From an uncultured Actinomycetes bacterium (GTDB taxonomy: Bacteria; Actinomycetota; UBA4738; HRBIN12), in assembly GCA_963728665.1 (NCBI GenBank), contig CAVSLG010000018.1, positions 134,431 through 198,430 on the forward strand: a DNA stretch of 64,000 nt, given 5' to 3'. Position 1 is the stretch's first letter; every line of letters starts with the position of its first letter. Positions 30,627 to 31,082 of the stretch are shown piece after piece. A program made the translations under genes and the position numbers. The notes under the pieces were generated by a model. That model did not search any database and had not been told where the DNA came from. It saw nothing but the letters and a program-made list of their open reading frames with translations.

Positions 30627-31082
30627 ATGTCGGACGAGAAGAAGATCGACGGAGAGGACACCGAGGGTCAGAAGAAGCGCCTCGAAGAGGACGACGCCGA
30701 GGGTCAGCGGCGGAGGCAGGCCGGTCTCGCCGAGGACGACACCGAGGGTCAGCGGCGCAGGCAGGCAGGCCTCGCCGAGGACGACACCGAGGGTCAGCGG
30801 CGCAGGCAGGCCGGTCTCGCCGAGGACGACACCGAGGGTCAGCGGAAGCGCCTCGACGAGGATGACACCGAGGGTCAGCGGAAGCGCCTCGACGAGGACG
30901 ACACCGAGGGCATGATCAAGTCTCGGCGCACCCTGGACGAGGACGACACCGAGGGTCAGAGGAAGCGCCTCGACGAGGATGACACCGAGGGCATGATCAA
31001 GTCTCGGCGCACCCTGGACGAGGACGACACCGAGGGTCAGCGGAAGCGCCTCGACGAGGACGACACTCTCGAGCAGGCCTGA
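30627..31082 (+). CDS. Tandem-repeat protein with ten D-T/A-E-G acidic spacers and basic cassettes; candidate multi-core peptide precursor
   Basis: AGAAGGAGG RBS, in-frame 36/45-nt repeats with synonymous variation, downstream terminator. Confidence 0.85.
   Translation: MSDEKKIDGEDTEGQKKRLEEDDAEGQRRRQAGLAEDDTEGQRRRQAGLAEDDTEGQRRRQAGLAEDDTEGQRKRLDEDDTEGQRKRLDEDDTEGMIKSRRTLDEDDTEGQRKRLDEDDTEGMIKSRRTLDEDDTEGQRKRLDEDDTLEQA
30654..31067 (+). repeat. Coding tandem repeat array (36-nt and 45-nt units sharing GAGGAYGACACCGAGGG)
   Basis: Directly visible repeats; an 81-nt higher-order unit occurs twice. Confidence 0.9.

Follow-up and report, generated by a model that had tools for sequence, protein, structure and literature searches.

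In cyanobactin pathways, a multi-core precursor, PatE, carries cassettes flanked by conserved recognition sequences, and S8 proteases, PatA and PatG, are used. QhpE, a compact subtilase without a propeptide, acts on a ribosomal peptide when it matures QhpC of quinohemoprotein amine dehydrogenase. In fungi, Kex2-processed repeat proteins (KEPs) and yeast α-factor are described as small proteins of tandem near-identical units, with a copy number and peptide sequence that change fast between species (PMC7329392, PMC9769878, PMC6339444). Here, we report on a 151-residue tandem-repeat protein, which we call REP, and on the genes around it, in a 64,000-nucleotide stretch of DNA (the window; positions 134,431 to 198,430 of contig CAVSLG010000018.1, assembly GCA_963728665.1) from an uncultured Actinomycetes bacterium. 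Like KEPs and α-factor, REP consists of tandem near-identical units that turn over quickly between species, and it is presumed, in the reading that we tentatively favor, to be cut by a subtilase. The likeness to cyanobactins lies in a bacterial protein of several cassettes beside conserved sequences, accompanied by an S8 protease, and that protease resembles QhpE in being compact and propeptide-less.

In a family of Actinomycetota, in Limnocylindria and in other soil lineages, REP shows genetic linkage to a Crp/FNR regulator, to a GAF protein of the cyclic nucleotide monophosphate (cNMP)-binding type and to an S8 protease. This cross-phylum linkage, and a conserved operator upstream of the gene, are new relative to an initial annotation of the window that was made from its letters alone. 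Our leading interpretation, which we hold with somewhat less than even confidence, is that REP is a cytoplasmic, disordered polyprotein in which the motif [DE][DE]DD-T-E-G-[H/Q/M] is the recognition and cleavage element for the propeptide-less S8, under Crp and cNMP control.

Architecture of REP and its family

REP parses exactly into ten acidic motifs (EDTEG and EDDAEG once each, EDDTEG eight times), each followed by one basic cassette, namely Q[KR]KRL[DE] five times (QKKRLE once, QRKRLD four times), QRRRQAGLA three times and MIKSRRTLD twice, and it closes with a degenerate unit, EDDTLEQA. The initial annotation had described the same ten spacers, three cassette types and truncated end, together with a higher-order duplication of 81 nt, and both descriptions hold. 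Tandem Repeats Finder reported periods of 36, 45, and 81 nt, with the 81-nt unit present in 2.7 copies at 95% matches, and the first two of these copies (30851-30931 and 30932-31012) are identical at 77 of 81 bases.

We found no match of REP to any Pfam, NCBIfam or PADLOC family and no Rfam family, and a literature search, which did not extend to supplements, returned no published description of REP or of such a peptide system. The ESM Atlas gave unnamed clusters alone (0.86-0.87, below the 0.9 mark), which serve only as leads. Sequence searches identified few relatives (30 at E ≤ 0.01 in a word-indexed search, and 31 at E ≤ 0.001 in a set of 1.84 billion representatives), whereas motif-based searches point to a large and diverse family. 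Seemingly fused forms were dismissed as spurious, since none of the 12 matches examined from the E ≤ 0.001 set (206-3012 aa) carries the motif, and a plasmid collection held no tblastn match to the REP of locus L111. The coding pattern of the motif occurs in REP alone in the window's own genome (G000). Its two-copy form was present in 5 of 401 sampled genomes of the phylum, G000 included, all of them from the window's family (f1), with 0 control matches.

Several types of REP can be distinguished. The window's genus encodes a Q-type (MSDQE...EDDTEGQ), 36 Limnocylindria (Chloroflexota) loci from metagenome-assembled genomes (MAGs) encode an H-type with a conserved N-terminus of 24-30 aa (MDNYRRRPPMEGFSRPG...), and soil metagenomes contain further types (MTEQ..., MSEQ..., ...IAKLDDDTEGH...) as well as forms with a conserved C-terminal tail. 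In one such subfamily (L096, L116, L126, L127, L135; P0017), the tail extends for ~40 aa after the repeats, reads ..NPLL.R.LA.ARE..I.R.L..RQ......KRGR and has no Pfam match.

The initial annotation proposed checking whether spacers are conserved among homologs while cores and copy number vary, and a position-by-position count in 115 distinct proteins bears this out. The motif, [DE][DE]DD-T-E-G-[H/Q] with M also at the last position, is almost invariant family-wide: with each position scored while anchoring on the others, and with two units per metagenome locus fixed by the search pattern, we counted G in 378/378 units, E in 378/390, H, Q or M in 378/380 (H 299, Q 73, M 6), T in 330/378 (A in 28, V in 18 and S in 2), D(-1) in 378/417 and D(-2) in 341/421. 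Linker positions each hold less than about 1 bit, and K or R is present in 244 of the 247 distinct linkers. Units are mostly 13-17 aa long, and proteins contain 2-10 of them. In the window clade, the His that follows the motif is replaced by Gln or Met throughout, and the degenerate last unit is conserved as EDD[TSG][LF]xxx-COOH.

Linkers are homogenized inside a protein, and they differ sharply even among species with S8 proteins that are 83-98% identical. A second, partial GAF-REP copy is located at a contig end of the window's own assembly (L002, G000:C15:25444-27120). Over 62 residues, its REP shares 95% identity with that of the window, but the cassettes follow a different order and one unit is a T-D-G variant, and its GAF is 90% identical; the copy probably comes from a co-assembled strain, with the contig breaking within the repeats. 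A REP allele that is shorter by 9 nt was found on a soil DNA contig. Together, these differences show that the repeats continue to turn over by tandem duplication and deletion.

With 53 Asp or Glu and 32 Lys or Arg residues (35% acidic and 21% basic, in alternating blocks), an isoelectric point (pI) of 4.43 and no hydrophobic segment (maximum 19-aa Kyte-Doolittle score -1.14), REP might be taken for a cation-binding or protective polyampholyte, such as an Asp/Glu/His metal buffer, a hydrophilin/LEA-like stress protectant or a condensate former, that its neighbors only regulate. The frequent His after the motif (299/380 units) would suit such a role, as would the soil habitat, the stretch being present in DNA runs of several soil and rhizosphere studies. 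We nevertheless consider it improbable. A conserved metal site sits poorly with the Gln or Met found across the window clade, the motif is, by inspection, off the EF-hand Dx[DN]xDG register, the near-absolute conservation of E-G and of register exceeds the needs of a bulk-charge function, and the tight linkage to a protease would be left unexplained.

REP is a protein-coding gene

Metagenome contigs were scanned with a DNA pattern that comprises two motif copies separated by any gap of 15-36 nt, so that the frame was left free. In the 80 loci obtained in this way, 183 of 184 motif-to-motif distances are divisible by 3. Third codon positions of the motif vary among 47 actinobacterial and 94 Limnocylindria units (GAC/GAT, GAG/GAA, GGT/GGC/GGG/GGA, ACC/ACG/ACA/ACT, CAC/CAT), while the invariance of first and second positions there follows from the regular expression and is no evidence. 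The copies within the window REP likewise differ synonymously (GAC/GAT, GGT/GGC, CGG/AGG), as had been noted before. The GC content at third codon positions (GC3) is 0.88 in the frame of the REP open reading frame (ORF), compared with 0.88-0.91 in neighboring genes. Given the in-frame spacings, the third-position variation and a GC3 like that of its neighbors, REP is a real protein-coding gene, in keeping with the initial annotation, and its repeats are neither chance nor purely nucleotide-level.

The strong ribosome-binding site and the terminator that the initial annotation assigned to the gene are also recognizable (Table 1). The GC-rich hairpin after REP folds at -34.3 kcal/mol (z = -3.3; 3 of 200 shuffles fold as well) and is placed between the convergent REP and MFS genes. 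It was missed by a consensus terminator scan because it has no T-run, and we regard it as a likely terminator. Nine intact loci of the genus share the start (MSD/E-Q/E...), Shine-Dalgarno sequence, stop and terminator hairpin. In addition, contigs from RNA libraries (two runs of one study, X15 and X16) lie on REP in short pieces. They are a weak hint of expression, as such contigs establish neither a transcript nor its ends or level, and DNA carry-over is possible.

In some sequences the motif is found in more than one frame, namely in database proteins P0003, P0007, P0008, and P0024 and in 6 of 15 genus loci (two or three frames). All six loci come from assemblies of ≤40 contigs, and the differences, judged by eye, are mostly single-base and in short homopolymer runs. 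Such differences are the signature of long-read assembly errors. REP genes of relatives that are out of frame in few-contig MAGs include L007, L009, L010, L013, L014, L015, and L086; gene callers then output chimeric proteins in which the motif is read as RTTPRA.. or RGRHRG.. (P0008, P0024).

The multi-frame occurrences, the high conservation of the DNA motif GACGACACCGAGGG and a weak Rfam match to CRISPR-DR20 could together be taken to mean that the repeats act as nucleic acid, be it as an operator or iteron array, a small RNA sponge or a CRISPR-like array, and that the ORF is incidental. The likelihood of this is, in our view, close to nil. The spacings are multiples of 3 in loci that were found regardless of frame, the out-of-frame cases are confined to few-contig assemblies, third positions vary with a GC3 equal to that of the neighbors, and start codon, Shine-Dalgarno sequence, stop and terminator are conserved. 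As for a CRISPR array, the match is noise (17.3 bits, below the gathering score of 42; E = 4.2), and the would-be spacers are themselves repeated and coding.

REP is linked to Crp/FNR, GAF, and S8 genes across phyla

The gene order in the window is Crp/FNR (+), DUF1028/TPR (-), S8 (-), GAF (-), REP (+), and MFS_3-cNMP (-). In the 36 Limnocylindria loci the order, all on one strand, is Crp > REP > GAF > S8 > MFS-cNMP; Crp is found in 36/36 and GAF with S8 in 30/36, the other 6 loci ending just past REP. The gap between REP and GAF is ~10 nt there, and REP opens the S8-encoding operon. The window's genus has the same module genes in rearranged order, and a third arrangement, seen with the MTEQ type, runs GAF > S8 > Crp > REP > stand-alone cNMP-binding protein. 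In every case, GAF is the gene that immediately precedes S8, with a gap of 1 nt in the window and of ~8 nt in Limnocylindria.

At least one of Crp, GAF, and S8 accompanies REP in 61 of the 80 metagenome loci. Where at least 2.5 kb is available on both sides (n = 8), GAF and S8 are each present in 8/8, Crp in 7/8, and MFS in 4/8. Among 24 other genomes of the window's genus (counts that include the unpublished genome G019), REP was found in 13 and GAF in 14, and the fourteenth GAF genome (G014) has a frameshifted REP beside GAF. REP and GAF thus occur together in 14/14 genomes, and neither was found in the remaining 10. Close GAF homologs at NCBI are filed under "Actinomycetota bacterium".

Crp, GAF, S8, and MFS-cNMP are the only genes shared across phyla. 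The initial annotation had drawn attention to the S8, GAF, and TPR neighbors; the first two are indeed conserved across phyla, but the TPR protein is not conserved beyond the genus, and we rejected DUF1028/TPR as a module partner. Two ORFs of 234-235 aa without a Pfam match flank the module, and homologs of one or the other lie near it in the genus relatives L060, L065, L066, and L071.

Other genera of the order have GAF-S8(-Crp) sets in which GAF is 33-49% and S8 58-63% identical to the window's (L094 and L095, G035:C99; L087, G029 unpublished). No tandem-repeat gene was found near the sets L094, L095, and L087, and no DDTEG coding pattern genome-wide in G035. A second REP paralog in G024 (L070, G024:C2:580000-595000) has two operators and the hairpin of the 5′ untranslated region (UTR) described below; its 15-kb locus contains no GAF, S8 or Crp, and a distant MFS-cNMP (27% identity) lies ~2 kb off.

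The multi-core-like architecture, and the presence of Thr with Asp or Glu in each motif, raise the thought that REP is the precursor of a classical RiPP (a ribosomally made peptide that is modified after translation), with ester, lactam or heterocycle crosslinks from Thr to Asp/Glu that would be installed by tailoring enzymes encoded elsewhere. Thr plus Asp/Glu is the residue set used by the ATP-grasp enzymes of graspetides. This origin strikes us as very improbable, however. Neither ATP-grasp, YcaO, radical-SAM nor other tailoring enzymes were found among the genes conserved across phyla (Pfam searches of the window neighbors, L024, and L111), the S8 scores only 11 bits with the PatA/PatG model against a cut-off of 421, and Ala or Val stands in place of the Thr in 46/378 units.

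Operators and the 5′ untranslated region

Two TGTC-N8-GACA sites precede REP in 15/15 genus loci, starting at ~-121 and ~-98 (the second at -96 to -101), and 28/28 Limnocylindria loci have one such site at ~-110; the central bases vary freely. An exact site lies within 300 nt upstream of REP in 47 of 59 evaluable metagenome loci, which corresponds to 2.77 operators per kb upstream of REP as opposed to 0.018 per kb in the remainder of these loci. The window's own genome contains 15 sites, compared with 3 for a reversed control pattern. Elements resembling a -10 box were read by eye as TAGGAT in Limnocylindria and GATGAT/CAAGAT in the genus. If these are right, the operators would be centered at ~-41 and ~-64 in a class II-like arrangement, a site centered near -41 being the class II activator position. 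The half-sites equal those of the CooA-type CRP/FNR box, which has the consensus TGTCGGCNNGCCGACA (PMC545781), and the Crp/FNR regulator of the module is presumed to bind them.

There are 13 other TGTC-N8-GACA sites in the genome; among the three intergenic ones checked, only that preceding an S9 peptidase gene is kept in relatives. This perfect TGTCGGGAATCCGACA box lies 75 nt upstream of the gene, which encodes a Peptidase_S9 of the prolyl-oligopeptidase family (L216, G000:C3:50600-53700, site 1528-1543). In the three nearest relatives that were checked (G021, G023, and G004), the site is located at -69/-70 before the orthologs, and it is not found in seven more distant genomes. The Peptidase_S9 gene may belong to the same regulon in this clade specifically.

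Between the operators and the Shine-Dalgarno sequence, the 5′-UTR contains a six-pair hairpin with compensatory changes at two pairs in the 15 genus sequences (CG to UA in 4, CG to GC in 4). Its 3′ arm can instead pair with the Shine-Dalgarno sequence in the single-sequence minimum free energy fold of 30586-30620, and this region could act as a translational switch. That single-sequence fold is no better than those of shuffles (z = 0.21), and the alignment supports the 6-bp hairpin alone.

Partner proteins

The S8 protein matches PF00082 with 88.5 bits (cut-off 21.8). In 33 sequences that represent both phyla, the D45/H87/S232 triad and an N170/N171 pair at the oxyanion position do not vary. 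Neither a propeptide domain nor a signal peptide nor a hydrophobic segment is present in the S8; by these features, it looks active and cytoplasmic. The S8 profile aligns best to engineered variants of subtilisin BPN′, which carry a deletion of 75-83 and the changes Y104A, G128S, E156S, and G166S (PMC7935941). In the alignment with BPN′, the S8 is without the 75-83 loop, has a shortened 157-163 loop, and contains Lys103 (invariant), Gly104, Ser127, and Ser166. In subtilisin, side chains at 127 and 166 constrict the S1 pocket, which favors small residues at P1. Based on Ser127, Ser166, and this precedent from subtilisin engineering, the S8 is predicted to prefer a small P1 residue such as Gly, and cleavage after the invariant Gly of the motif, with D-T-E at P4-P2, would fit.

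The top PDB sequence matches of the GAF protein are 4mcw, CyaB2 (1ykd), and the GAF domains of PDE2, PDE5, and PDE10. It appears from these matches to be of the cNMP-binding type, as its closest solved relatives bind cAMP or cGMP. The Crp regulator scores best with the E. coli CRP model, yet at 84.7 bits (cut-off 266) it is no equivalog. By inspection, both the Crp protein and the C-terminal domain of the MFS protein contain an FGE...R[ST]A stretch, which we take to be the typical phosphate-binding cassette motif of cNMP domains. The MFS_3 and cNMP-binding parts are in different frames in the window assembly and form one open frame in the ortholog of G004 (L060); the break reflects an indel of the assembly or else a genuine frameshift in this strain.

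Table 1. Positions of the features discussed in the text (numbering of the window)
Feature	Position	Strand	Basis or remark
Pfam-less flanking ORF	26083-26790	-	
Crp/FNR-family regulator, cNMP-binding domain and HTH_Crp_2	27177..27890	+	Domain architecture; neighborhood
DUF1028 and TPR protein	27929..28834	-	Neighbor in the window's genus only; outside the conserved module
S8 subtilase, 272 aa	28868..29686	-	PF00082; catalytic residues invariant in 33 sequences
GAF-domain protein	29688..30545	-	PF13185, PF01590; likely true start at a conserved Met, ~30431
Operator 1, TGTCGGCAACATGACA (TGTC-N8-GACA)	30506..30521		Starts 121 nt upstream of the REP ATG
Operator 2, AGTCGCCTGCATGACA, one mismatch	30529..30544		Starts 98 nt upstream of the REP ATG; offset from the operator 1 start by 23 nt
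5′-UTR hairpin GAGCCC-N9-GGGCTC, six pairs	30586..30606	+	Directly 5′ of the Shine-Dalgarno sequence; two pairs with compensatory changes
Shine-Dalgarno sequence, GAAGGAGG	30613..30620	+	6 nt 5′ of the REP ATG; kept in 15 genus loci
REP, 151-aa tandem-repeat protein	30627..31082	+	ATG-started ORF, sequence parse, homologs
GC-rich UUCG-loop hairpin, likely bidirectional intrinsic terminator without a T-run	31103..31130		Fold; recurs after REP in relatives
MFS_3 transporter with C-terminal cNMP-binding domain	31131..32811	-	Apparent frameshift near 31500
Pfam-less flanking ORF	32937-33641	+	

A candidate role for REP

The conservation of S8 and GAF as partners across phyla raises the odds that REP is a precursor or a substrate. 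Under the polyprotein interpretation, the Crp/FNR regulator, with its intact cNMP-binding domain and probably together with a cyclic nucleotide, would bind the two boxes and activate REP, whose translation would then be driven by the strong Shine-Dalgarno sequence. The GAF protein may sense a cyclic nucleotide and gate the S8, or present the substrate to it. The S8 would cut each unit, most plausibly after the invariant Gly, to give n peptides of 11-16 residues, each basic and variable in its N-terminal half and closing with a constant, acidic ...DDTEG; for this organism, the predicted products are QRKRLDEDDTEG, QRRRQAGLAEDDTEG, and MIKSRRTLDEDDTEG. Where present, MFS_3-cNMP might export the peptides or further-trimmed products. 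Rapid change in copy number and linkers through tandem duplication and deletion would endow each species with its own peptide set. The scheme in full, in which a cNMP signal would have three points of action (Crp for transcription, GAF-S8 for proteolysis, and MFS-cNMP for export) and would free many unmodified, species-specific linear peptides from one disordered precursor in the manner of pro-hormone or α-factor polyproteins, is more speculative, and we regard it as rather doubtful.

Several observations weigh against the polyprotein interpretation. The RNA-library contigs of a single study are the whole evidence for REP expression. REP occurs without partners within 2-3 kb in L141, L154, L155, and the second copy of G024, and, conversely, another genus has the GAF-S8-Crp trio but no DDTEG gene (G035, 94% complete). 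Part of the conservation of the motif is imposed by homolog retrieval and anchoring, and the counts overstate it somewhat. The initial annotation stated that every core has a di- or tribasic site, which is accurate for the window protein (a dibasic site in 10/10 cassettes); across the family, a dibasic [KR][KR] is found in 116 of 247 distinct linkers, and there is no family-wide conserved dibasic site. S8 (pI 5.5) and GAF (pI 4.5) are themselves acidic, so that neither shows an evident charge complementarity to the motif. MFS is present in just 4 of the 8 fully evaluable loci, and an MFS protein would be an unusual exporter for 12-15-mers. Finally, an uncleaved binding role would suit the conserved motif equally well.

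Such a role would make REP an uncut, multivalent, disordered ligand, i.e., a decoy, scaffold or pseudo-substrate of GAF, of the S8 active site (as an inhibitor), or of Crp or the cNMP-domain proteins, with S8 at most setting its turnover. A short linear motif that stays invariant over 2-10 copies, between linkers that vary freely, has the look of multivalent binders, and the module contains three proteins of the cNMP-sensor type, no modifying enzyme, and an exporter in only half of the evaluable loci. The conserved, helical-looking C-terminal tail of some subfamilies would be needless for a mere precursor, the degenerate last unit of the window clade is itself conserved, and, since the trio exists without REP in G035, REP could be an added regulator. 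We think the ligand role unlikely, though a serious contender. An intact protease with an invariant triad is the most constant partner (8/8 evaluable loci), and in Limnocylindria REP leads the operon that encodes it.

The REP family and its regulated GAF/S8/Crp module are, as far as we could find, undescribed, occur in at least two phyla of soil bacteria, and, on the sequence evidence, suggest a regulated peptide-producing system. If REP is cut, the module would constitute a bacterial, unmodified, multi-copy ribosomal peptide system with a dedicated cytoplasmic subtilase and cyclic-nucleotide sensors at several steps. It would then provide a function for the GAF/S8/Crp trio and for small repeat genes that are annotated merely as "hypothetical". 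It would also represent an undescribed peptide-signaling or -effector system that is widespread in uncultured soil Actinomycetota and Chloroflexota, and would link cAMP/cGMP signaling to peptide production in these abundant lineages. Even if REP is uncleaved, an invariant 7-residue motif kept across phyla amid rapidly turning-over linkers is unusual and well defined, and, were cleavage disproved, the module would be without any known counterpart. The module is easily testable, with four proteins that are small and soluble, an operator of 16 bp and synthetic 12-15-mers.

Comparison with known systems

The regulatory elements have their closest parallel in the CooA-type operators, which share the half-sites TGTC(G)...(C)GACA and the 16-bp geometry of the REP sites (PMC545781). 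The module differs from CooA systems in the cNMP phosphate-binding-cassette-like motif of its regulator and in having no coo genes. TIGR03896 ("bacteriocin-type transport-associated protein") is a precedent, in name, for cNMP-binding domains beside peptide export; the match is domain-level only (28.8 bits against 161), and the exporter here is an MFS protein, not ABC/C39. An anti-phage defense system was also considered and rejected, as PADLOC returned only generic subtilase and cNMP-domain matches.

Assignments of the S8 to described subtilases were likewise rejected. It is not a mycosin of a type VII secretion system (TIGR03921, 100 bits against 278.75; no hydrophobic segment), nor a PatA/PatG protease (TIGR03895, cut-off 421.05, E = 0.12 in NCBIfam). 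QhpE (NF049966) is its second-best NCBIfam match (E = 2.5e-28), but it reaches just 98.9 bits where the cut-off is 165, and no qhp genes (radical-SAM QhpD, QhpA/B/C) are nearby. QhpE may still be viewed as a precedent, being a small subtilase with a role in the maturation of a ribosomal peptide.

Compared with cyanobactin pathways, the locus has no heterocyclase, macrocyclase domain, DUF or PatE-like leader, and REP units are highly charged and far more numerous. KEPs pass through the secretory pathway and have a signal peptide, KR sites and a kexin with a P-domain; REP and S8 have no signal peptide or hydrophobic segment. The S8 is, moreover, only 272 aa long, dibasic sites occur in just 116 of 247 linkers, and the conserved element of REP is an acidic heptad, in a bacterial protein that is tied to cNMP-type sensors. 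Since the locus thus departs from the KEP, cyanobactin, and QhpE systems alike, we tentatively class REP as a "multi-copy precursor plus dedicated subtilase".

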